Part shown: one piece after another, positions 5,567 to 54,849 of the stretch
Position numbering within the stretch: the first letter of the stretch is position 1
Layout: every line of letters starts with the position of its first letter
Sequence record: OR539218.1
DNA length: 64,000 nucleotides
Strand: one strand, 5' to 3'
Origin: Escherichia phage vB-Eco-KMB26
Made by a program: the position numbers and the translations under genes
The notes under the pieces: model-generated
The model's database searches: none
What the model saw: only the letters and a program-made list of their open reading frames with translations
Told to the model about the DNA's origin: nothing

Positions 5567-5784
5567 TAATAAATTTCCTTCCAGTAAGTTGTACCATCTT
5601 CAGTGATTTCACGAAATACACCGTAAATTGGTTGTTTATCACCGACTTTCTCATATACATAAACCGAAGTCAAGTGAGTAAACTTGATAGTGTGTTCCTT
5701 TTGAACTACTACCAAATCTGGATCGAATAATACATCTTCAAATTCATCATTAGTGCAATTCTGAACAATTTTACGTTTCATCAT
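5566..5784 (-). CDS. hypothetical protein (position of T4 cef)
   Basis: 72-aa ORF with GAGGAA Shine-Dalgarno upstream of the ATG. Confidence 0.5.
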
Positions 5785-5883
5785 AATTTCCTCATTAATT
5801 GAACATTGGAGCGATGCGTTTCAGAAGAGTATCAGCGCACCTTTAACGAATTATCCATTTTATTCTTCAAGTTGTTTTCTGTA

Positions 5884-5929
5884 TCAGTAGTTGATATTGA
5901 TATAGTACCATAATCAACTACTGATGTAT
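5884..5929 (-). promoter_or_regulatory. 13-bp perfect inverted repeat enclosing a TGGTACTAT -10-like motif
   Basis: atcagtagttgat ... atcaactactgat read directly; the loop carries the same extended -10 as the early promoters but no GTTTAC -35. Confidence 0.4.
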
Positions 5930-5955
5930 ATAGTTTTATGAAAAAATTTTAAACT

Positions 5956-6447
5956 TTATGCATAGCGAGCTTTGCTGTAGTGTTTAATCCAACTTTCAGG
6001 AATGACTTTGTATGTTCCTAAAAATACCGCGTTGTATAACTTAACGCCATCTTCTACCCATTGATCAGTAATGTATGCACACATAGCGCGAGTACGCTGA
6101 GGAAGTGGTTGTCCACCTTCGGTAAATTCAAACTCATAAGGAGCAATGAACTTGATAGCTTGACCAAGTTTCCACTTAAAGTCTACACCTACATGCGAAG
6201 TATCAATCGTTTCAATTCCTTTAGCAGGAACAGCTTTCAAAAACGCAGGCTCAAGAAATTTCCATCGAACATAACCAAACTGGGGCTTAGACATTCCATC
6301 TTTAGCAATGATACGTACTTTTACTTCAGAATCTTCATCTTTAACACCGTGTTTAAGCTGAATGCTTACAACTTCGACCAATTTTCCTGCTGCTTTAGAA
6401 CGGGATTTATCAGATACACGAGCAATTTCACCGATATTAATATTCAT
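5956..6447 (-). CDS. motB: MotB-like protein (163 aa)
   Basis: Position and size agree with T4 MotB (recalled as 162 aa); C-terminal domain shared with the next ORF. Confidence 0.5.
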   Translation of the reverse strand: MNINIGEIARVSDKSRSKAAGKLVEVVSIQLKHGVKDEDSEVKVRIIAKDGMSKPQFGYVRWKFLEPAFLKAVPAKGIETIDTSHVGVDFKWKLGQAIKFIAPYEFEFTEGGQPLPQRTRAMCAYITDQWVEDGVKLYNAVFLGTYKVIPESWIKHYSKARYA

Positions 6448-7629: not shown

Positions 7630-8313
7630 TTATCGTTTTGTTGGAAGAGATAGAGGATCGCAATCTTCCTCTGATGGAGCATCTTCAAGACCCATAGCAT
7701 ATCGCAAAGCGTACTTCATCATCAGGATGTCTTTCGCACAGTCATGAATAGAATCATGCGCAACGAATCCATCTAAAGTTCCTTTTGGAAGAGGACACGT
7801 GGTCATATCACGAACAAGCAGAAGTGCTTCAATTCTGGTACGAATATCACGCTGATTCCAGAATTTACATGGTTCTAACTTAAATGTGTCAAGTTCATTC
7901 TCAGAAACACCATTAAGACGTTGAATATCACGAATGAGATCGACTAAAATTGGAAAATCAAACGACATTCCACGGCACCAGCCTTGAGATTTCCAAGGAT
8001 CGATATTATGTGCATTGATGTAATCATTAAATTTCGCAATACCGTCGATAGTGCTTACATCTTCATCGGACGGTGCAATATTTTTTCGAGCTTCAGGAGA
8101 CTGATTTTTCCACCATTCGATAGTGCTTTTAGTAAAAAGACGATGTCCTTTTTGGCTTTTTAAATCAAATTTGATTTTAATGCCGCGTGAAACTAATTCA
8201 TCAAATGTTTCAACTACTTCTGGGTTAGGGTCAAAAGCAATTACAGCTAAATCAATAACAGCTGCTTTTTCACCACTTCCCATTGTTTCAAAATCTATAA
8301 TAAAATCAAACAT
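7630..8313 (-). CDS. dexA: exonuclease A (DEDDh 3'-5' exonuclease)
   Basis: 227 aa; N-terminal DxE motif (FDFIIDFET); size matches T4 DexA. Confidence 0.8.
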   Translation of the reverse strand: MFDFIIDFETMGSGEKAAVIDLAVIAFDPNPEVVETFDELVSRGIKIKFDLKSQKGHRLFTKSTIEWWKNQSPEARKNIAPSDEDVSTIDGIAKFNDYINAHNIDPWKSQGWCRGMSFDFPILVDLIRDIQRLNGVSENELDTFKLEPCKFWNQRDIRTRIEALLLVRDMTTCPLPKGTLDGFVAHDSIHDCAKDILMMKYALRYAMGLEDAPSEEDCDPLSLPTKR

Positions 8314-8588
8314 TAAATTTTCCTTGCTAAATCGCGAATTTGACCTACAGTATAATCTTGAATATAAACTTTATTAATAGGTTCATCAATAAATTTTGCC
8401 ATAGATTCAATATCTTTTTGTATTTCTTCAAGACTGTATATTATCTTTAAAGCTTTTTCGCGAATAGTAATATTTTCAGGACCAGAATTTTTCTCAATGA
8501 CAGCTTTAACATTTGTCATAAGAGATTTAAACTGACACCAACTTAATTCAATCATTAATAACCGCCTTATAAAGATGGCTAATTTCAC
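8313..8588 (-). CDS. small hypothetical protein (dexA.1 position)
   Basis: 91-aa ORF; C-terminal VYIQDYTVGQIRDL resembles the next ORF. Confidence 0.5.
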   Translation of the reverse strand: MKLAIFIRRLLMIELSWCQFKSLMTNVKAVIEKNSGPENITIREKALKIIYSLEEIQKDIESMAKFIDEPINKVYIQDYTVGQIRDLARKI

Positions 8589-8808
8589 CTAAAATGTAAT
8601 CACTGATTGTAACAGTTTTTACTTCACCACAAAAGAATTCTAACGCAATCAAATCTCGTTCAATTTCTTCCAATTGAAGCATTAACTTGCCTGATTCAAT
8701 TTTCACGTTTTTGCGATTTTTACTATAAGCTATTTCATAAATTTCGCTAACTTTATCCTGAAGAAGATAAAACTGATCTTTAGTTATTTCCACGAATAGC
8801 TTCCTCAA
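8548..8808 (-). CDS. small hypothetical protein (dexA.2 position), paralogue of 8313..8588
   Basis: 86 aa; C-terminal VTISDYILGEISHL. Confidence 0.5.
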   Translation of the reverse strand: MRKLFVEITKDQFYLLQDKVSEIYEIAYSKNRKNVKIESGKLMLQLEEIERDLIALEFFCGEVKTVTISDYILGEISHLYKAVIND

Positions 8809-9040
8809 ATTTAATTAGTAATTTACAGACACTTTCATCTAGTGTAATTACCGTATCTGTATTACTGTGATATGATTGTTTTTCAATTCGTTTAATTGCT
8901 AATATAGTATCACTTATAAGATAAAGCTTATGAAGGAGCTCAGCTCCTGTTACCATAACATTAAGATTATCTTGCTTATTAGTATGCTTCCTTATACCAT
9001 CTATTAGACGATTTAAATATTTTGAATTGATGTTAATCAT
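8780..9040 (-). CDS. small hypothetical protein
   Basis: 86-aa ORF between the dexA.2-like ORF and dda. Confidence 0.45.
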   Translation of the reverse strand: MININSKYLNRLIDGIRKHTNKQDNLNVMVTGAELLHKLYLISDTILAIKRIEKQSYHSNTDTVITLDESVCKLLIKFEEAIRGNN

Positions 9041-44709: not shown

Positions 44710-44735
44710 ACCCTTACCTTAAATAGATAAGGGTA
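44710..44735 (-). promoter_or_regulatory. stem-loop sequestering the gene 49 Shine-Dalgarno
   Basis: acccttA ... Taagggt inverted repeat (7-bp stem, 12-nt loop) overlapping AAGGTAAGGG just 5' of the ATG. Confidence 0.45.
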
Positions 44736-44745
44736 TTTATTATTT

Positions 44746-44922
44746 TTAAGTATTGTAAAACATTCGATGCAATCGTTTATACTGTCGAATCATCTTTTTA
44801 GTAGGACGAGAATAGGTTCCTACGCAAGTGGTCATATGAGGGTCCGTAGAATGTCCTTTAATAAAAAGTTTCCAAACCTTACCGCCATTTAACTTTTCAG
44901 TATAAACCAATTCGGTTTTCAT
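44746..44922 (-). CDS. small protein sharing its C-terminal 14 residues with the Pin-like ORF
   Basis: 58-aa ORF not in track ending ...KMIRQYKRLHRMFYNT, versus ...QKIRQYKRLHQMFYNT in the next gene. Confidence 0.4.
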   Translation of the reverse strand: MKTELVYTEKLNGGKVWKLFIKGHSTDPHMTTCVGTYSRPTKKMIRQYKRLHRMFYNT

Positions 44923-44958
44923 TAAAATGTCCTGTCAGAAAAAGAATTTTGAGTTTTT

Positions 44959-45444
44959 TCAAGTATTATAAAACATTTGATGCAATCGCTTATATTGCCG
45001 AATCTTTTGGTCAGAAAAAGAAATTTGAGTTTCAAGCCATTCAATGTACTCTGCGGCAGCTTGCATCAGGTTACCTTCATAGCCATCGTTATTTTCTTGT
45101 GCAGCTAATTTAGCTAATGCGTATGAAATACGTTCACCTTGAAAATCGGCTTTAGGCTTCTGAACAACTTGATTAGTTCGCTCTACAACTTCTTCAATTT
45201 CGCCATTTTCGACTGATTCAGTATTCCACAAGCACCAATACGTAATTGGCTTATCGTAGATGTTAATAATCTTTCCGTCGGAAAGTTCAATTTCAATAAT
45301 TCCAGTGTCAGGCTCTATATCATCTTCACATTCTTTTACAAGTTCACGAACTTTAAAGACAGTACCTGCACTAAGTTCCGGCCAGTAATTACATAGCCCT
45401 GTATCAACACGATTAATTCTAAACCACTTATCTACTGTAATCAT
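44959..45444 (-). CDS. pin: Pin-like protein (protease inhibitor position)
   Basis: Track ORF trimmed to the ATG after GGAG (161 aa, the size recalled for T4 Pin); identification is by position and size. Confidence 0.45.
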   Translation of the reverse strand: MITVDKWFRINRVDTGLCNYWPELSAGTVFKVRELVKECEDDIEPDTGIIEIELSDGKIINIYDKPITYWCLWNTESVENGEIEEVVERTNQVVQKPKADFQGERISYALAKLAAQENNDGYEGNLMQAAAEYIEWLETQISFSDQKIRQYKRLHQMFYNT

Positions 45445-45566
45445 GTCCCATCTCCATATCAATTAAGTCATTTATCGTTGGTTCATTATATACTGTTTCT
45501 TCATCAGTGTAAACCGGTTCTTCCGGCTCTGGCTCTACAGTTTCCCATCTAGCCGCCCACCAAGGT

Positions 45567-46461: not shown

Positions 46462-46851
46462 TTAATCCAAAATATTATTAGGCATTGGTTGAACACTCAC
46501 AAGTTCTTTAAAGAACTCAGTAGAGTCAGGCAATTTAACCATTTCCGGAGCATGCTTACTGAATTTATGTTTACATTGACGGCATTTATATTCAAGCTCT
46601 GGTTTACGCCAGTTAATCAACTGAACTTGTTCAGTACCGCATTCAGGGCAATTAGGAACGTTTTTAGAAGCTCTTTCACGTCGTTCAACCATAGCCATAA
46701 TAGCATCCCATGCTGGAGGTTTAAAATCTAAATCGTCGCAGCCGTGAATCTTTCCACGCATTTCCATATCATCTTCCTCACCAGCCATAATAATTTTAAT
46801 TAAACTGGAATTACTTGAAGCTGCAATGTCTTCTAATAAACGCTTTTTCAT
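46462..46851 (-). CDS. zinc-ribbon protein (nrdC.2 position)
   Basis: 129 aa with CPECG...CRQC. Confidence 0.55.
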
Positions 46852-47777
46852 TTCAATACCTCAATAGCATTACGTAAACCATTTGCTTTTGCATTAAGAG
46901 CTTTTAACAATTTGGTGTGTTCTGCAATTTGGGCTTCAACTTCAATCAAACGGGCATTGAGATATTCACGTTCTTCACTCAGATTATCAACCTTTTCTAC
47001 TTTAGGCTCTTTTACAACTGTCTTATATGTATTAGGGTTCTTCAGTTTAATTAGAATGCGTGAACTGTACAGCATTGAATCATTATCTTCGGTTTCGTCA
47101 TACATTTCCACTACGTCCATCATCTCCACCATCGTGCAGAGTTTATAAGACAACGAACGAATAATTTTGTTGTGCTTATTAATTTCTCTAGCTGTCATGG
47201 TGCCGAGATTACGTGAGTAATAATAAGGAACCTGGATATTAATTAATACTGATGAACCACCTGGCTTGTGTGTTACTTCATCAGCAATAACCCAATCCTT
47301 AACATGAACTGTATTTGTACGGTCATCGCCCGCGGTAAATAGTTTACGAGCATGCTTAAAAAGCATATTCACTTGGTCATTGAATTGACAAGCGAATTTA
47401 TCAGCAAATTTAGTTTCGGGAATGGTAGATAACCAATCAGCCAAATGGGTCTTTTTAACATCGTTAACAATAGTAAATTCAACCAAATCGGTTATAGATG
47501 TCGCAGTTTTAATGAATCTCGGCTTCATAAAGTTTTTAATGTTATCGCGAGCTACAGTAGAAGATAACATACGAGAACGTTTAAACCATTCAAGTAAATT
47601 GCCTAACGAATGAGAATAAGCGTTCTGAGTATCTTTACAGATATGATTTTCCTGGCCAACATACTGAAGGAAATCACGAAGAATATTATTGATTACTGCT
47701 CTGTGTCCTATCTGATAATCACGATGTTTAGTAATAAGACTGTCAAAATAATCAATATAATGTTTACGAGTTTTCAT
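46848..47777 (-). CDS. hypothetical protein with C-terminal coiled coil (1 of 4)
   Basis: 309 aa; last ~40 residues heptad-rich ([40 protein letters not shown]). Confidence 0.6.
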   Translation of the reverse strand: MKTRKHYIDYFDSLITKHRDYQIGHRAVINNILRDFLQYVGQENHICKDTQNAYSHSLGNLLEWFKRSRMLSSTVARDNIKNFMKPRFIKTATSITDLVEFTIVNDVKKTHLADWLSTIPETKFADKFACQFNDQVNMLFKHARKLFTAGDDRTNTVHVKDWVIADEVTHKPGGSSVLINIQVPYYYSRNLGTMTAREINKHNKIIRSLSYKLCTMVEMMDVVEMYDETEDNDSMLYSSRILIKLKNPNTYKTVVKEPKVEKVDNLSEEREYLNARLIEVEAQIAEHTKLLKALNAKANGLRNAIEVLK

Positions 47778-47829
47778 ATTCTTCTCACTTGGTTAATGGT
47801 TTATACTCCGAGCCATCCTTGGCTTTAAA

Positions 47830-48831
47830 TTACTTAATTAACTGTAAAGCTTGTTCAAGACGATCAAGACGATTAACGGATTCTTCCCAAATCTTTTTAG
47901 CCTGCTCATATTCTTTCTGCGCTTTATTAGAAATTTCTAGAACTTCTTTATAAGCTTTTTCTAGTGCAATAACTTCTGGACGAATTTCTACTGGTTCAGG
48001 CGAATCGTCAAGACATTCCATTAGTTCCTCAAGGGTAGTTTCTTCTTTAGGAGTATTCACAATTTCATCACATTTTTGTTGGTAAATTTCTTTATCAGTC
48101 GGTGAGTACGCACACTTTACTTCACGGAGACTAACTACAATTTTATATCCTTCCCAACCGCATATATTCTTAAAAGGATAAGTATGAATATTTTCTACTG
48201 TTTCCATACAAAGTAATGCGGTCTCTAACTGACGAGTTATATCGCTAGCAATTGAGAAAAATTTATTAATGTTCTTTTGATTAGCTTCTGGTGTAAAAAA
48301 TTCATAATTCACAAAAATAGCTGCTTTATTTTTATCAAGCTCATATTCTTTTATGATAATCATATCAGAAGCCCAAGGATGGATTTGACGATAATCACCA
48401 TAGCATAATTTAGAAGTTGATTTTAGAATTTGCTTCTTGAAAAGTCTAAAATTACTAATCCAACGACGAGTAAAAATATTCTCAGGGTCTTCTTTATTAT
48501 TAAGATGATAAGAATTAACATCACCGAACCAACTGTATCCTACTACATCTTTAGTTCGTTTAATTTCTTTCCCAAATTTACCAAGAATATCTTGATTAAC
48601 TAAATATGAAAGAAGACGAGAACCTTTAAAAGTTTCCTTAATATCATCTTTATATTCGCGACTAGAAATTTTATGAACTTCATGAATAAATTTGCTTGAA
48701 GAAACAATACTTGCATCAATATTATTGAGCCATTGATTGATAATGGAAATAACACTATTCTGACTAAACACAGGTTTAACTTTATCATCAATAACGCTAT
48801 TGAATGATTTGATATATTCGTTACGAGTCAT
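47830..48831 (-). CDS. hypothetical protein with C-terminal coiled coil (2 of 4)
   Basis: Track ORF trimmed to the ATG after GAGGAG (333 aa) so the early promoter lies upstream. Confidence 0.6.
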   Translation of the reverse strand: MTRNEYIKSFNSVIDDKVKPVFSQNSVISIINQWLNNIDASIVSSSKFIHEVHKISSREYKDDIKETFKGSRLLSYLVNQDILGKFGKEIKRTKDVVGYSWFGDVNSYHLNNKEDPENIFTRRWISNFRLFKKQILKSTSKLCYGDYRQIHPWASDMIIIKEYELDKNKAAIFVNYEFFTPEANQKNINKFFSIASDITRQLETALLCMETVENIHTYPFKNICGWEGYKIVVSLREVKCAYSPTDKEIYQQKCDEIVNTPKEETTLEELMECLDDSPEPVEIRPEVIALEKAYKEVLEISNKAQKEYEQAKKIWEESVNRLDRLEQALQLIK

Positions 48832-48859
48832 ATTAATCTCCTCAGTAGAAAGTAAGAAC

Positions 48860-48889
48860 ATTATACCACATCCTTGTGGCAAAGTAAAC
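48860..48889 (-). promoter_or_regulatory. T4-type early promoter
   Basis: Minus strand GTTTAC, 17 bp, TATAAT, with ccacatccttgtgg inverted repeat in the spacer (near-identical to the one at 2418..2447). Confidence 0.6.
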
Positions 48890-49911
48890 TAGTTTAGTGC
48901 ATTTAGTGCATTGTTCAGTTTAGAACGTTGCTTCGTAAGATTTTTGACTTTTTCTTGAGCTTTTTCTAGCATCTTTTCAGCTTCTAGCACTTCATTAGTT
49001 GCTTTAACGAGTTCATCATCTACTGCCTTGATAGACTTCTCAATCGCATCCGCGTGCCATTTTTCAACAGGTTTAAGACTCGGATTTTCAATAGGAAGAA
49101 AATTCACTTTATTGAATTTCCATGCATCTTTATTACCTGAGCTATACATCCAAAATTTAGGATCGTTTGATGAGCAATTAGATAAATTTAAGTTATCTTG
49201 CACTTCCTGCTTTTTCTCTTGCGGGACTTCATCCTTTCTCAAAAAATCGTATTTAAATGAAACGATCATATCAAGTTCATACGTTGTTGTATGTTCCCAA
49301 TTTCGCTCAAAATGAGGTAAAATCTTAGACTGAACAGCGGCAACAACATCCATATACTTAAATGCTTCTGTCAACTGTGATTTAAGGCATTCACAAATTG
49401 AAAGAGAATTTTTTGTATTAGGTTTAAAGCTAATTCGTGCAGTTCTATTATTTTCTTTTAATGGTCTTACTTCCATCTGAAGAGTATAACCATCAAATTT
49501 CAGGTTCTTTAAGTTAATGTCAGAACCTTTTAATCGACTAGCCGTCGACAAAATTTGCTTTAATTGTTTACGGAATAGAGCAATAAATCTCCATTCAAGA
49601 CGGTAATGATTTGGATTAAAAAATCCTGTTGATAAATCAACCTTACTCTGACCAACGCCTTGAACAAATAGAGGATTTTTATAATCAATAGTTTTACAGA
49701 AATCGGTGAGCTGTTCGCGAGCAGTCATTTGCGTAATATATCCAGCTTTATCAAAATGTCGCAGCCATTCACTGCTATTCATATACTTAAAGTGATGAAT
49801 AACACGATTAACTTTATCAGGGTCTAAATTATTTTCACACAAAAATGTCATAACATCACGAGTATAGCTGGCATTACGAACCATATCTTCAATTTGAGAA
49901 CGAGTTTTCAT
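48889..49911 (-). CDS. hypothetical protein with C-terminal coiled coil (3 of 4)
   Basis: 340 aa; begins MKTR like 46848..47777; coiled-coil tail. Confidence 0.6.
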   Translation of the reverse strand: MKTRSQIEDMVRNASYTRDVMTFLCENNLDPDKVNRVIHHFKYMNSSEWLRHFDKAGYITQMTAREQLTDFCKTIDYKNPLFVQGVGQSKVDLSTGFFNPNHYRLEWRFIALFRKQLKQILSTASRLKGSDINLKNLKFDGYTLQMEVRPLKENNRTARISFKPNTKNSLSICECLKSQLTEAFKYMDVVAAVQSKILPHFERNWEHTTTYELDMIVSFKYDFLRKDEVPQEKKQEVQDNLNLSNCSSNDPKFWMYSSGNKDAWKFNKVNFLPIENPSLKPVEKWHADAIEKSIKAVDDELVKATNEVLEAEKMLEKAQEKVKNLTKQRSKLNNALNALN

Positions 49912-49919
49912 GGTGTTCC

Positions 49920-50828
49920 TTAAGATTTAAGTAAATCAACGATTTTAATTAATTTTTCACGCTCAGATTTAGCTTTACTACTCAATCCAGATAGTCTGAA
50001 AATTTCATCATCATATTGCTGAATAGAAATATTTAGCTCTTCAATCTGCTTATTAAAATAAGCAATTTGTTCAGAATGTTTTTCATTACTGCGAACTGGT
50101 ACAGGTTTTGTAGGTAATTTAGTTGAACTGGATTCATCTGGGCGATAAATTAAAATGCAATTTGAACCAATCGGACATTTAGCACCAGACACATATTCTA
50201 ATGTTCCGGCTTCTTTTAAAACTTCAAAAGCTAAACAGAGATGATGCCCCATATTAACATAATCTGTAGAGCGAGCTCTGATGTAATAATCATCTCCACG
50301 AGTACTAAATTTAAAGCATTTAAGGTCTTCTGTATTATTGGTCTTAAAAATCATTTGTTTATCTAGACCTTTAGCTAATCGAGCGCCTAATGCTAATAAT
50401 CGTCGTTGATTTTCCCACAAATCCGCAATCATTTGGTCAAATGATAATTTCGGCATTAGTCTACCATAAAGGTCATATCCTTTATTATAATTGCGAAGGA
50501 TTTCACTCGCATTAATACGAGACAACGCTCCAATTTTATTAAGGGCTTTCATGATGCGATTAGATAAACCCATTCCAGATCCGTTTGTTCGTTGCAAATG
50601 TTTATCTAACCCAAACCCAATATCAACTTTAAATTTATCTAAAATTTCAGCATGAACATCTCTGTCAATAACATTCAAATCCAAAGTTGGGTTAAATCTA
50701 TGAAAAAATTTATCTGGCTCTCCACGACGAAGTACAGTCCATTCATTTAATTTTTTATTAACTAAAGATTTAATTACTGCATTGACATTATTAATTACTA
50801 CTGACATATTTTCCTCACTCAATTTCAA
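49920..50828 (-). CDS. hypothetical protein with C-terminal coiled coil (4 of 4)
   Basis: 302 aa; coiled-coil tail. Confidence 0.6.
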   Translation of the reverse strand: MKLSEENMSVVINNVNAVIKSLVNKKLNEWTVLRRGEPDKFFHRFNPTLDLNVIDRDVHAEILDKFKVDIGFGLDKHLQRTNGSGMGLSNRIMKALNKIGALSRINASEILRNYNKGYDLYGRLMPKLSFDQMIADLWENQRRLLALGARLAKGLDKQMIFKTNNTEDLKCFKFSTRGDDYYIRARSTDYVNMGHHLCLAFEVLKEAGTLEYVSGAKCPIGSNCILIYRPDESSSTKLPTKPVPVRSNEKHSEQIAYFNKQIEELNISIQQYDDEIFRLSGLSSKAKSEREKLIKIVDLLKS

Positions 50829-51222
50829 TTTTACTAAATATACAGAATAAGATGGAACAGACTATATAAGCACCACACACAGATTGAACTAATACCATTC
50901 CAAAGAACCAAACAATATTATCAAACAATGTCTGTTTTACGTCGAAAGGACGTAAACTTACAGTAATATTATCGCCTTTTTCTATTGATGAATACATCTC
51001 TGGTGAAATATATTCACTAAATCTATAACCGTCTTTGAGTTCATATACGGCAATAAACGATAAACTAGACCCCTTTCCTTGAGTTCCTGTAAGGGTATTA
51101 ACTACAGTAACATCATAATCTTTATAATGCATATAATCATTAATTGCGTAATAACCATATGCAATTGCTATACATAAACAACATATCAATAAATTCAATC
51201 TTTTAATTATCAACTGTTTCAT
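50815..51222 (-). CDS. membrane protein (N- and C-terminal hydrophobic helices)
   Basis: 135-aa ORF. Confidence 0.55.
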   Translation of the reverse strand: MKQLIIKRLNLLICCLCIAIAYGYYAINDYMHYKDYDVTVVNTLTGTQGKGSSLSFIAVYELKDGYRFSEYISPEMYSSIEKGDNITVSLRPFDVKQTLFDNIVWFFGMVLVQSVCGAYIVCSILFCIFSKIEIE

Positions 51223-51277
51223 AATAATCTCAATTAAAAGGGCTTAGAACCATTATACCATCCTTGGTATAAAGCGG

Positions 51278-51805
51278 TTATGCGAGTACCGTCTTTAACC
51301 GTTCTTCAAACTTCCGAAGAGTATTCTGGCGTTCAGCTCTTTGCTTTTTGTAAGTTTCAATACGCTCTGAAATGAGAGTGTATCGTTCATTTACTGATTC
51401 TTTCATAAAATCAGGAATTTCACGAGAAGCTTTAATCTCATCAAATTTATCAATAACAGCTTGCTCTTCAGCAATTAAGTTATCATACATCAAAATATCT
51501 TTCTTGATGAACTCAATATCTTCTTGAGTTACACGAGATAATTTAGATGCTTTATCCTTTTTGTACTGTTCGTTAGTATCACGAGACCAGTGTAATGTAC
51601 GATTTTTATTCGTATTCTTGTAAATTTCTACAATACCAATCTCATCGATAATAACGATCCAATTCCAACGAGATTTGTAAATTTGTCCTCCGTCAACCGT
51701 GATTTCACCTCCGATTGAGATGTCATTAAAGAACTTACTTTGTGCTTCAGATTTAAATTTACCATCGTTGTAATTTACCAGGTTGAAAATATCTTTAGCG
51801 TTCAT
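51278..51805 (-). CDS. hypothetical protein
   Basis: 175-aa ORF directly downstream of an early promoter. Confidence 0.6.
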   Translation of the reverse strand: MNAKDIFNLVNYNDGKFKSEAQSKFFNDISIGGEITVDGGQIYKSRWNWIVIIDEIGIVEIYKNTNKNRTLHWSRDTNEQYKKDKASKLSRVTQEDIEFIKKDILMYDNLIAEEQAVIDKFDEIKASREIPDFMKESVNERYTLISERIETYKKQRAERQNTLRKFEERLKTVLA

Positions 51806-51833
51806 TTTGTGTTCCTCCGTAGTTGATAGTTGT

Positions 51834-51863
51834 ATAGTACCACAGAGGAACAGTCTTGTAAAC
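51834..51863 (-). promoter_or_regulatory. T4-type early promoter
   Basis: Minus strand GTTTAC, 17 bp, TACTAT, followed by ACAACTATCAAC. Confidence 0.55.
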
Positions 51864-51865
51864 CA

Positions 51866-52180
51866 CTAAAAGAAACTTCTTTCACAATTTTTTCCACTGA
51901 ACCATGCGCTTACCGCTTTCTTAGTCTCAGGAGCAGTGTTATCCATAAACCATTCAAAGGCAGCCTTTTTATGATTCTGGAGGGCTTCTCGGGCTTTAAT
52001 CTGCTCACGGTCTATTAACACTAACATATGAGCCTTTCTTGTCACCATGGGCTTCTTATGATTTTTTGAATACTCCCAGTCATTTGTCCATCGCATTGTC
52101 GTTGCGAACTTAAATACTGCTTCTTTAATTTTAGTTTCGTAAATTTCACGAGCCTTTGAGTATAACATCATTACCTCCAT
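51866..52180 (-). CDS. hypothetical protein
   Basis: 104-aa basic ORF. Confidence 0.5.
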   Translation of the reverse strand: MEVMMLYSKAREIYETKIKEAVFKFATTMRWTNDWEYSKNHKKPMVTRKAHMLVLIDREQIKAREALQNHKKAAFEWFMDNTAPETKKAVSAWFSGKNCERSFF

Positions 52181-52270
52181 TCACCAGTTTAATTCTAGTC
52201 ATCTTTTTAATGGCAGTCCATATAATCTATTTCTGAACTGCCTTTTTGTCATAGAAGTCCTCTTATGAAT

Positions 52271-53239
52271 TTATTTCAGAAGAGTAACCTCAGCGATTTC
52301 TTGCCAACCGTTTTTGTCGGTCATAATAAAGTCAGCAAGATAAAGTGCAGTACGCAGTGAAACATTGCGTAAACGGTTAACATTGACTTTCATCCATGAT
52401 AATGCTTTATAAGTTTCTTCATCAGAAAGACCGCGCTTTTGCATCATGTCAGTTGAAAGAATAACATCTTCAACCCTGACCATAATTTCTTCATTAGTGT
52501 GAACACCCAAATCCAAATAAACCGAGCGGGACACTAATGCTTGTAAATGTGGAGCAAGTTTAGTACCACGGTCTAATTCGCGGTCAATGTCAACGTTTGT
52601 GATAAAAACAATCGTTCCTTTAAATTCAAACTCACGCTCAATGCCTTTTTCTTCTAAGTAAGAAGATGCGGTGCTCCAGCAGACTTTACGGGTCTCTCCA
52701 GTGTCCAGAGCAGCTTTCAGAAGATTAAGAATGTCCATATCAGAGAAAACATCCACATCATCAATCAAAAGGACAGAATTCTCTTCACGATTATTCCAAA
52801 GTTGTTCATAAAGACCGATACCGGAGATTTTACCGTTAATGCTTTTATATTCAATGTATCCATTATCATTTGCTTTATTCAAAGCTTTATCTAAAGAATA
52901 CGTTTTACCAATACCCGCCGCACCAGAGATAATTAATGAACGAATGTTTCCGTTAATAATACCATTCGTCATCATTCCCATAACATTAAATCTTTTATTA
53001 ATGCGGGTTTTCATATCTTCATATGATTCTTTAACTTCTTCAACTTTTACACCATCATATGAAATGTCTGATTTGTAAACCCAAACACCGCGACGCTTAC
53101 CGTCAATTTCAACAAAAACTTTACCATCTCCTTGTGCATCTACCGGAGCATTATCTGGGAACCATTCACCTAAGAGCTCAAAAGTTCCAGAGATTTCTTT
53201 ACCGAAGTAGATACCCTTATTGATAGTTACAGTTTTCAT
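52271..53239 (-). CDS. P-loop NTPase
   Basis: Trimmed to internal ATG (322 aa); Walker A GAAGIGKT and Walker B LLIDDVD. Confidence 0.65.
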   Translation of the reverse strand: MKTVTINKGIYFGKEISGTFELLGEWFPDNAPVDAQGDGKVFVEIDGKRRGVWVYKSDISYDGVKVEEVKESYEDMKTRINKRFNVMGMMTNGIINGNIRSLIISGAAGIGKTYSLDKALNKANDNGYIEYKSINGKISGIGLYEQLWNNREENSVLLIDDVDVFSDMDILNLLKAALDTGETRKVCWSTASSYLEEKGIEREFEFKGTIVFITNVDIDRELDRGTKLAPHLQALVSRSVYLDLGVHTNEEIMVRVEDVILSTDMMQKRGLSDEETYKALSWMKVNVNRLRNVSLRTALYLADFIMTDKNGWQEIAEVTLLK

Positions 53240-53275
53240 TTTATTCTCCAATCTCACATTTGTTTTGATAGGGTA

Positions 53276-53835: not shown

Positions 53836-54849
53836 TCATTTATAATAACTTCGGTGGTTTTCAAGATAAACCCTCTCAAGGAAGTCATCCCAAAAACCCA
53901 TGTCTACTTTTTGCTGCATACCGTTCTTAGAAGCTTCAGTAGATGCTGCTTCTACTTGATCGACCACATCTTCCAAAAACTCTTGAACCGTTTTAAATGG
54001 ATGTTTACCCAACTTCACGTCGAGAATAAATGGAGCATCTTGGAGTGGATAAACCAAGTCACCAGTTTTGTAAATTTCCAATAGTTGGAGTCCACCACGG
54101 CAAGCATGACTCAGAGCTTTCCAGTCAATACCTTCATTGGCTTCGGCCTTACGAGCACGTTCACCGTATTCAGCATCTAATTTGTTCAGTGACTGCTTAA
54201 GCTCAATAAGAGAAAGCGTTGTCTGATATTTACGACCCAACACTGTGTAGAACGTCTGTGGGCCTGTTTTCTCATGATTATGGAACACCCATTCACAGAA
54301 TTCGTTTTCTGGAAGACGATGCTTAATATCTTCAACTTTAGTACGACGCTGCTTAATAGAACCATCTTCTTGGTAATCAACCCATTGCTCAGGGATTTGA
54401 TTAACTACTTTCAATACATCACGTAATGCAGCCAAACGAGAACCCTTAACGCCGTATTTAGAAGCTTGCTTACGGACATATCCTAAATAGGATTTCATGT
54501 TAGTCGTATAAAAACGAGAACGGTTGTCTTGAATAAACTTCCACACATCAGGCAAATCAGATTTAACCACTAGTTCAGGTGGAGTGTGAAGCATATCTAA
54601 CGCTACAGTTTCACCATCTGCTGCTAATTTAAAGAAATATTTAAGACTGTATAGTTCATGGTCAATATCATCTTTAGTGTTTTTAGATGATGTGTTGTTA
54701 GTGTTTTTACTCATGTGCTCTTTAACATTTCCGATAAGAATATCACGAGCAGGAGGAACAAAGATTTCTTTAAAATCTACATCAGATTCTGGGGTAGAAG
54801 TTCCATAAAGATGACTACCAAAATAGCTTTTCATTACTGTTTTCATCAT
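53836..54849 (-). CDS. nucleotidyltransferase-fold protein (Pol-beta-like GS...DxD motif)
   Basis: 337 aa; N-terminal FGSHLYGTSTPESDVDF fits the hG[GS]x9-13Dh[DE]h signature; possible third acidic site at DDIDHE. Confidence 0.55.
   Translation of the reverse strand: MMKTVMKSYFGSHLYGTSTPESDVDFKEIFVPPARDILIGNVKEHMSKNTNNTSSKNTKDDIDHELYSLKYFFKLAADGETVALDMLHTPPELVVKSDLPDVWKFIQDNRSRFYTTNMKSYLGYVRKQASKYGVKGSRLAALRDVLKVVNQIPEQWVDYQEDGSIKQRRTKVEDIKHRLPENEFCEWVFHNHEKTGPQTFYTVLGRKYQTTLSLIELKQSLNKLDAEYGERARKAEANEGIDWKALSHACRGGLQLLEIYKTGDLVYPLQDAPFILDVKLGKHPFKTVQEFLEDVVDQVEAASTEASKNGMQQKVDMGFWDDFLERVYLENHRSYYK

Follow-up and report, generated by a model that had tools for sequence, protein, structure and literature searches.

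The window analyzed here is a 64,000-nucleotide (nt) stretch of DNA from Escherichia phage vB-Eco-KMB26 (sequence record OR539218.1), taken as a whole, and the subject of this report is an array of four consecutive genes on its minus strand. The window is Tequatrovirus DNA, and the four open reading frames (ORFs) are orthologs of nrdC.3, nrdC.4, nrdC.5 and nrdC.6 of phage T4; they are referred to below as c3, c4, c5 and c6, respectively. An earlier reading of the same DNA, made from the letters alone and without database searches (the sequence-only reading), had described the encoded proteins as divergent bodies that share a C-terminal module. The four are in fact full-length paralogs belonging to a single family that is specific to T4-like phages (Straboviridae).

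All genes of the region are located on the minus strand, in the order nrdD, endonuclease VII, pin, nrdC (87 amino acids), nrdC.1, nrdC.2, c3 to c6, nrdC.7, nrdC.8, nrdC.9, nrdC.10 and nrdC.11, where nrdC.7 encodes a membrane protein, nrdC.10 a P-loop-like protein and nrdC.11 an RlaP-type nucleotidyltransferase. In nucleotide comparisons, the 3,981-bp stretch that holds the four genes has matches in 654 T4-like phage records, with 99.8% identity to Escherichia phage vB_EcoM-CHD16UKE1 and 92% identity to positions 48933–52911 of T4 (AF158101), a segment annotated as nrdC.3 to nrdC.6. The T4 match also touches nrdC.7 and one further gene name. The sequence-only reading thus had the layout right: four large ORFs lie head to tail at the coordinates it gave, two of the products begin with MKTR (c3 and c5, with MTR in c4), the genes sit in an accessory region downstream of nrdC, and the comparison it proposed with nrdC.3 to nrdC.6 of T4 identifies them as orthologs.

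Database profiles agree with these assignments. Both c3 and c4 match the same PHROG, phrog_1435, with expect values (E) of 1e-115 and 1e-165, and the Pfam family PF26897 is carried by all c4 homologs as well as by the c3-derived part of a chimeric homolog, P0056. The c5 protein matches DUF7235 (PF23882) over all of profile positions 1–307 of 307, at 429 bits against a cut-off of 30 (E 1e-128). It shares 92% amino-acid identity with T4 NrdC.5, and like that protein it is encoded between nrdC.6 and nrdC.4. Finally, c6 matches phrog_2257 from residue 8 onward (E 4e-152), and PF26899 is carried by 105 of 105 c6 homologs. The libraries assign no function to T4 NrdC.3 and NrdC.4 (PF26897, phrog_1435) or to NrdC.6 (PF26899, phrog_2257). 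Coordinates of the genes and associated features are collected in Table 1. The c6 protein probably starts at the ATG that yields 295 residues and not at the TTG that yields the 302 residues of the sequence-only reading, since a GAGG lies upstream of the ATG, most homologs are 292–298 amino acids long and the alignment to the PHROG profile begins at residue 8. For c4, an alternative reading extended to a TTG would comprise 350 amino acids and would run through the early-promoter-like site.

Table 1. Genes of the array, their C-terminal heptad helices and associated features, in window coordinates.
Feature	Position	Strand	Remarks
nrdC.3 ortholog (c3), 309 amino acids	46848-47777	minus	ORF; T4 annotation under match
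nrdC.4 ortholog (c4), 333 amino acids	47830-48831	minus	ORF; ATG at 48831, GGAG site upstream
nrdC.5 ortholog (c5), 340 amino acids	48889-49911	minus	ORF; full-length Pfam match
nrdC.6 ortholog (c6), 295 amino acids	49920-50807	minus	ATG at 50807 (probable start); 302-amino-acid form from TTG at 50828
nrdC.3 heptad helix, residues 262-309	46851-46994	minus	KEPKV motif before it at 46989-47012
nrdC.4 heptad helix, residues 285-333	47833-47979	minus	PEPVE motif before it at 47977-48000
nrdC.5 heptad helix, residues 284-340	48892-49062	minus	LKPVE motif before it at 49054-49077
nrdC.6 heptad helix, residues 242-295, kink at SGLSS	49923-50084	minus	TKPVPV motif before it at 50088-50111
Early-promoter-like site between nrdC.5 and nrdC.4	48860-48888	minus	GTTTACT, 17 nt, TG-TATAAT
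True NrdC, 87 amino acids	45952-46215		ORF

Kinship among the four proteins is faint at the level of single sequences. Among the four, BLASTP detects only the c3-c4 pair, with 24% identity over 229 residues (E 2e-6). Hidden Markov models (HMMs) of single families, searched against single sequences, link the nrdC.4 family to c3 (E 2e-19) and marginally to c5 (E 0.012), with no match to c6. Because pairwise BLASTP and single-family HMMs left most links undetected, family profiles and structures were needed. When family profiles were compared with hhalign, c3 and c4 aligned with a probability of 98.5% (E 2e-15), c4 and c5 with a probability of 91.6% (E 8e-7) over 182 colinear columns, and c3 and c5 at E 5e-3. 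The c4-c5 link reached significance through three distant relatives of nrdC.5: a word-indexed search had returned relatives of at least 83% identity alone, and an exhaustive search of representatives added P0226, P0229 and P0233, at 28–43% identity, to the family. Pairwise comparisons with c6 were weak (E 0.05 with c4 and E 0.003 with c5). A merged c3/c4/c5 profile, however, matched the c6 profile with a probability of 91.9% (E 7e-7) over 238 colinear columns, in an alignment that begins near residue 40, extends all the way to the C-terminus and takes in both the (K/E)PV motif ahead of the terminal helix and the terminal LLK. As a control, the merged profile was compared with 44 unrelated ORFs of the window, and the best match had an E of 0.04. 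Mutual similarity of the kind that the sequence-only reading proposed to seek by pairwise HHalign is therefore detected, with c6 weak when taken pair by pair.

The heads of the paralogs are ~12–24% identical to each other and have one motif in common (FKRSRMLSSTVARDNIKNF / FKGSRLLSYLVNQDILGKF / FDKAGYITQMTAREQLTDF / LNKIGALSRINASEILRNY). In addition, the N-termini of c3, c4 and c5, which read M(K)TR..., are mutually aligned, and this explains the two MKTR starts.

Predicted structures point the same way. AlphaFold2 models cover two of the four proteins, nrdC.4 and nrdC.6. The nrdC.4 model, built on a 27-sequence alignment, has a predicted local distance difference test score (pLDDT) of 82 and consists of a confident alpha/beta head (residues 1–259), a low-confidence segment (260–283, pLDDT <50) and a single helix (285–332). 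The nrdC.6 model has a pLDDT of 77; its head opens with N-terminal helices and a helix pair in which the shared motif lies. Short strands and another helix pair come next, then two strands, one long helix and a last pair of strands. A segment with pLDDT <50 (227–242) and the helices 242–271 and 277–294 complete the model. Secondary-structure elements occur in the same order in the two models, which also have the same linker, low-confidence in both, and the same terminal helix. A Foldseek search of BFVD with the c4 model returned uncharacterized proteins of ~300–370 amino acids from T4-like phages of Acinetobacter, Pectobacterium, Erwinia, Serratia, Klebsiella, Enterobacter and Yersinia, as well as the nrdC.6 protein of phage JS10 (E 7e-5, probability 1.0). 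The c6 model shares five non-self BFVD matches with the c4 model, all at probability 1.0, and the matches are reciprocal. Template modeling (TM) scores for these matches are modest (0.4–0.5), probably because the long helix is freely placed on a flexible linker.

The general build of the family is thus an alpha/beta head of ~220–260 residues, a linker of 20–60 residues that ends in (K/E)PV, and a C-terminal helix of 48–57 residues. It follows that the three families distinguished by Pfam and PHROGs (PF26897, PF23882 and PF26899) are one superfamily with the same head, linker motif and tail. That the four proteins form a family, as the sequence-only reading had it, is upheld by hhalign, the AlphaFold2 models and the reciprocal Foldseek matches. 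Its divergent bodies do look different at the level of BLAST; they are nevertheless homologous, and the picture of a shared C-terminal module on unlike bodies is not supported. Since the whole proteins are paralogs, the tail is present in each by descent.

The tails themselves are more pronounced than the ~40 charged, heptad-patterned residues first attributed to each protein. They are 48–57 residues long, or 7–8 heptads, with one register each. In c3 and c5 it runs without interruption; in c4 there is a short local drift, and in c6 a single shift, at the SGLSS kink. The final heptad position is e in c3, c4 and c5 and f in c6, which has one extra residue, so that all four proteins share one register when it is counted from the C-terminus. 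Tails were rated with a home-made heptad score against a background of 14,684 sequence windows drawn from the remaining minus-strand ORFs of the 64,000-nt stretch. By heptad score, the C-terminal 35 residues of all four proteins fall within the top 0.05–3% of this background, and within the top 0.03–0.5% when charge and proline/glycine content are also required. For instance, the c5 tail has eight uninterrupted heptads and scores 0.82–0.84 (top 0.05%), while the c3 tail, with V, R, L, I, L, A and I at its a positions and L, L, V, H, L, L and L at its d positions, scores 0.78 (top 0.2%). The C-terminal helix of c5 is predicted from its sequence pattern and from its alignment to c4 and c6. Among the invariant residues of the c6 tail are D266, D267, E268, I269 and F270.

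In all four families, the tail is better conserved than the body that precedes it. Within-family conservation of tail and body, respectively, is 0.83 and 0.71 for c3, 0.70 and 0.53 for c4, 0.53 and 0.47 for c5, and 0.68 and 0.59 for c6. The ratio of nonsynonymous to synonymous substitution rates (dN/dS) is lower in the tail than in the body in most comparisons, with values of 0.05–0.12 and 0.17–0.25, respectively, in c4. Within each family, conservation of tail positions falls in the order a/d, then e/g, then b/c/f, a gradient typical of a genuine coiled-coil interface, as would be expected of self-association.

A different role for the tails was suggested by the sequence-only reading, namely that they serve as a common docking module by which four interchangeable adaptors, each with its own head, plug into one host or phage partner. 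Such a module would fit tails that are similar in length, are in the same register and all end in L..A(I/L)..L(K/N), and that are more constrained than the heads. It would also fit the survival in isolates of chimeras with the head of one paralog on the tail of another (a c6 head with a c4 tail in phage Manna, and a c5 fragment with c3 in P0056). However, most of the tail positions conserved between paralogs belong to the a/d seam, to which three of the proteins add a terminal Lys, and they make up no common solvent-facing surface; the a/d-first gradient is the one that self-association gives. Across families, the consensus contains 2 identical columns (a Lys in the body and a Leu in the tail) and 16 similar columns out of 492; except for the one Lys all conserved columns are hydrophobic, and those of the tail lie on the a/d seam. 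Conservation between families that is almost confined to hydrophobic positions argues against a docking surface common to the tails and exposed to solvent, and also against a common catalytic site. In addition, comparisons of tail-only profiles are mostly no better than those against the unrelated tail of the neighboring nrdC.8 product, the exception being an end-anchored c3-c5 alignment (E 1.3e-4). Tails alone were for this reason set aside as proof of homology, which is established by the full-length alignments. No partner is known, and the sole experimental function in the family is counter-defense against the host protein Dsr1 and not that of an adaptor (PMC9391042). Docking onto one partner is weakly disfavored by the conservation pattern and is regarded as quite unlikely.

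Further observations concern the linker and tail. In the nrdC.5 family the linker (~residues 255–290) carries a strongly conserved motif, GNKD(A/L)WK(F/V)NK.N......NP..KP(V/I)E..HAD, which is retained in P0229 and P0233 at 28–31% overall identity and is a candidate binding element. In phage vB_EcoM_005 (L021; 155 kb), at 5606–6031 and 7941–8912, internal deletions in the nrdC.8 and nrdC.4 tails shorten the heptad helix and keep the last ~10 residues.

The array varies in its membership among phages. The number of phage records that carry each gene is 653 for nrdC.3, 553 for nrdC.4, 581 for nrdC.5 and 741 for nrdC.6, almost all of them from coliphage-type Tevenvirinae. Arrays have three or four members: most Tequatroviruses possess all four, some have c6-c5-c3, and loci with more divergent copies (~40–50% identity), apparently from other genera, have c6-c5-c4. 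The order is constant, as is the position between nrdC.8/nrdC.7 and nrdC.2. The region is prone to deletion between paralogs. In Salmonella phage Manna (L025 3715–4752), residues 1–269 of nrdC.6 are joined in frame to residues 251–333 of nrdC.4 at a DEI microhomology, and P0056 is an in-frame chimera of nrdC.5 residues ~146–270 and nrdC.3 residues ~137–309. Only out-of-frame remnants are left in ACG-C40 (L024 4305–4716) and Pinarejo (L026 4436–4649), and a frameshifted nrdC.4 lies at L016 7971–9003.

Two short proteins from the search of representatives join a foreign body to nrdC.5 tail sequence. P0231 (173 amino acids) consists of an unrelated body and the last 53 residues of nrdC.5, with 100% identity; it was considered as a case of module shuffling and rejected, as its body occurs in 0 of 50,697 phage records and the longer matches are ordinary nrdC.5 genes. 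P0236 (157 amino acids) has an unrelated body and resembles a Gram-positive membrane protein; immediately ahead of its own C-terminus, 32 residues match a portion of the nrdC.5 tail at 81% identity. Both are probably chimeras of assembly or gene calling.

In the literature searched, functional data exist for nrdC.5 alone. An evolved T4 clone with large deletions lost the ability to plate on Escherichia coli ECOR17, and plating was restored by deletion of dsr1 from this host; cloned dsr1, in turn, protected MG1655 against the deletion clone, and nrdC.5 supplied in trans allowed the clone to plate again on Dsr1-expressing cells (Srikant et al., eLife 2022, PMC9391042). The same paper terms nrdC.5 an early gene, and it does not describe the fold of the protein, its coiled-coil tail or its kinship to the neighboring genes. 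The activity was shown for the T4 allele, from which the allele of the window differs at ~8% of residues. Dsr1 contains a SIR2 domain and is believed to deplete nicotinamide adenine dinucleotide (NAD+). Its TPR sensor domain, of a kind also present in Avs7, is reported to be triggered by the phage major capsid protein (2026 preprint, PMC12803255).

An enzymatic role finds little in its favor. The four proteins have no enzyme-family match in Pfam or NCBIfam, and no polar constellation is conserved across the families, with the proviso that the alignment is uncertain at this divergence. A thioredoxin or glutaredoxin identity was likewise rejected, as the four ORFs have no thioredoxin-fold match in Pfam or NCBIfam. 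The "thioredoxin" labels on nrdC.1 to nrdC.11 in many GenBank records stem from the gene-name prefix "nrdC".

Being paralogs of nrdC.5, which is known to overcome Dsr1, the nrdC.3, nrdC.4 and nrdC.6 genes are good candidates for counter-defense. We consider it reasonably likely that the four genes make up an array of early-expressed, non-enzymatic counter-defense proteins with specific heads and oligomerizing tails. According to this model, the genes would be transcribed early, with a promoter-like site upstream of c4. The fast-diverging head of each protein would bind and neutralize one particular host immune protein, which for nrdC.5 would be the SIR2/TPR-sensor protein Dsr1 and for nrdC.3, nrdC.4 and nrdC.6 would be other defenses. 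The more conserved coiled-coil tail, judging from its heptad pattern, would oligomerize the protein, and the oligomer would in turn gain avidity against immune sensors that are themselves oligomeric. Paralog-specific surface residues may keep co-expressed tails from cross-pairing.

Whether this extends beyond nrdC.5 can be questioned. The other three genes might by now serve unrelated purposes early in infection, for example in regulation or host takeover, or be nearly dispensable. This would be in keeping with the low identity of the heads, with the frequent loss, frameshift or fusion of copies at no evident cost to the phage concerned, and with the outcome of the literature search, which gave no phenotype for nrdC.3, nrdC.4 or nrdC.6. 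The same search gave no paper on any of these three and none that describes the paralogy or the tails, and the nrdC genes are not listed in the supplements of the EVADES anti-defense catalog. Selection speaks otherwise: all four genes are under purifying selection (dN/dS 0.05–0.35, versus 0–0.14 for nrdC.8, nrdC.10, endonuclease VII and nrdD), and they are retained in 553–741 phage records. Moreover, loss in laboratory-propagated or host-restricted isolates is exactly what is seen with nrdC.5 itself. A counter-defense role restricted to nrdC.5 is thus judged fairly unlikely.

The head might instead be a mimic or relative of a structural protein, with a fold like that of tail-terminator or tail-completion proteins, acting as a component of the virion or its assembly or as a decoy for sensors of phage structural proteins. 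The c4 model has one weak BFVD match to a tail terminator, and both Dsr1 and DSR2, a defense-associated sirtuin, sense structural proteins. The resemblance to lambda gpU-like proteins, though, extends over ~90–120 residues and is at the level of the fold at most, with no sequence similarity. Their genomic and temporal context also differs from that of nrdC.3 to nrdC.6, which belong to a cluster of early accessory genes preceded by an early-promoter-like site and not to the late structural genes, and the trigger of Dsr1 is a capsid protein, not a tail protein. The label "tail sheath stabilizer and completion protein" given to nrdC.5 in the T6 record AP018814 is spill-over from an automatic, similarity-based pipeline that mislabels the whole neighborhood; it also names nrdC "ribonucleotide reductase alpha subunit". 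Structural mimicry is accordingly held to be very improbable.

Parallels to the counter-defense reading exist in other phage systems. DSAD1, with which SPbeta-like Bacillus phages counter DSR2, is like nrdC.5 a phage protein that disarms a defense-associated sirtuin, and structural studies report that it binds its target directly; it offers a functional analogy for the probable action of nrdC.5 on Dsr1. DSAD1 differs in its target, as DSR2 senses the tail tube protein, and in phage group and host, and the literature consulted describes neither a tandem array of paralogs nor a coiled-coil tail for it. A second parallel is the "anti-TA island" of T4, dmd-tifA-adfA, which likewise consists of adjacent early accessory genes, each directed against a different host defense; laboratory hosts can be infected without them, and they are readily amplified or deleted (PMC9391042). 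The island genes are of small size, and no mutual paralogy is reported for them, whereas nrdC.3 to nrdC.6 form an array of paralogs with conserved architecture.

Several points weigh against an array of oligomerizing counter-defense proteins. The phenotype is known for nrdC.5 only, and its rescue on Dsr1 cells could be indirect. Oligomerization is deduced from the pattern of the tail sequences, and these include residues that are atypical of a canonical parallel coiled coil, namely Tyr, Tyr and Trp at a positions of c4 and several Ala at d positions of c5, which could instead mean that the helix packs against another protein. The link to c6 comes from profile-profile comparison and predicted structure and not from direct sequence similarity. 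Gene- and region-wide dN/dS values are all <1, with no gene-wide signature of positive selection. Lastly, synteny of the c6-c5-c4 trio is kept in several genera at 40–50% identity, which makes it more stable than many arms-race loci.

With respect to expression, the site between nrdC.5 and nrdC.4 scored 10/12 with an extended TG in a promoter scan and, going by the T4 early consensus, is presumed to be a T4 early promoter. The minus-strand stretches 51252–51275, 48860–48888 and 47795–47825, upstream of nrdC.7, nrdC.4 and nrdC.3, respectively, have a common core, CCA(C)AAGGATG(T)GG...TATAA. In the copy ahead of nrdC.7, a GCTTTA box precedes TATAAT by 12 nt, in resemblance to a MotA-type middle promoter; the copy ahead of nrdC.3 is broken up by extra bases.

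Neighboring genes of the cluster have features of their own. Two genes upstream of the array, the ORF at the nrdC.8 position (51278–51805, minus strand; 175 amino acids) ends in a charged heptad tail (...ERIETYKKQRAERQNTLRKFEERLKTVLA) that is the top-scoring C-terminal tail among 82 other ORFs. All related loci retain this ORF, at a very low dN/dS (0–0.12), and it has no Pfam or NCBIfam match. Its candidacy as a fifth, truncated family member was rejected, as it gives no signal against the merged c3/c4/c5 profile. Two more uncharacterized accessory genes of the same cluster are nrdC.10 (52271–53257, minus strand), with sub-threshold P-loop/STAND-like matches, and nrdC.11 (53836–54849, minus strand), which matches the RlaP nucleotidyltransferase family PF10127 above cut-off (E 2e-11). 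On the other side of the array, a 63-nt direct repeat with 81% identity occurs at 44729–44791 and 44942–45004. Because of this repeat, a 58-amino-acid ORF (44746–44922) and the ORF at the pin position (44959–45462) have nearly the same last 15 residues (...IRQYKRLH(R/Q)MFYNT). The repeat is a small duplication of the 3′ end of a gene.

T4 is the best-studied phage, and still about half of its early accessory genes are without a known role. The genes of the array were already known as T4 ORFs, as was the counter-defense phenotype of nrdC.5; what is new is the merger of the families and the prediction, based on architecture, for the other three genes. A bolder extension, which we think improbable, is that the array is a set of matched sensor blockers, in which each head neutralizes a different clade of the widespread Avs7/Dsr1-type TPR-sensor immune proteins or other oligomeric sensors and the tails build defined homo- or hetero-oligomers. 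If so, T4-like phages would carry a single multivalent "anti-sensor" particle, and its subunits would undergo exchange, duplication and recombination head by head as hosts change. Through their full-length paralogy with nrdC.5, three "hypothetical proteins" become concrete candidates for new immune inhibitors, encoded by genes found in 550–740 sequenced phages. At the same time, three database families are merged into one and a widespread "thioredoxin" mis-annotation is corrected.

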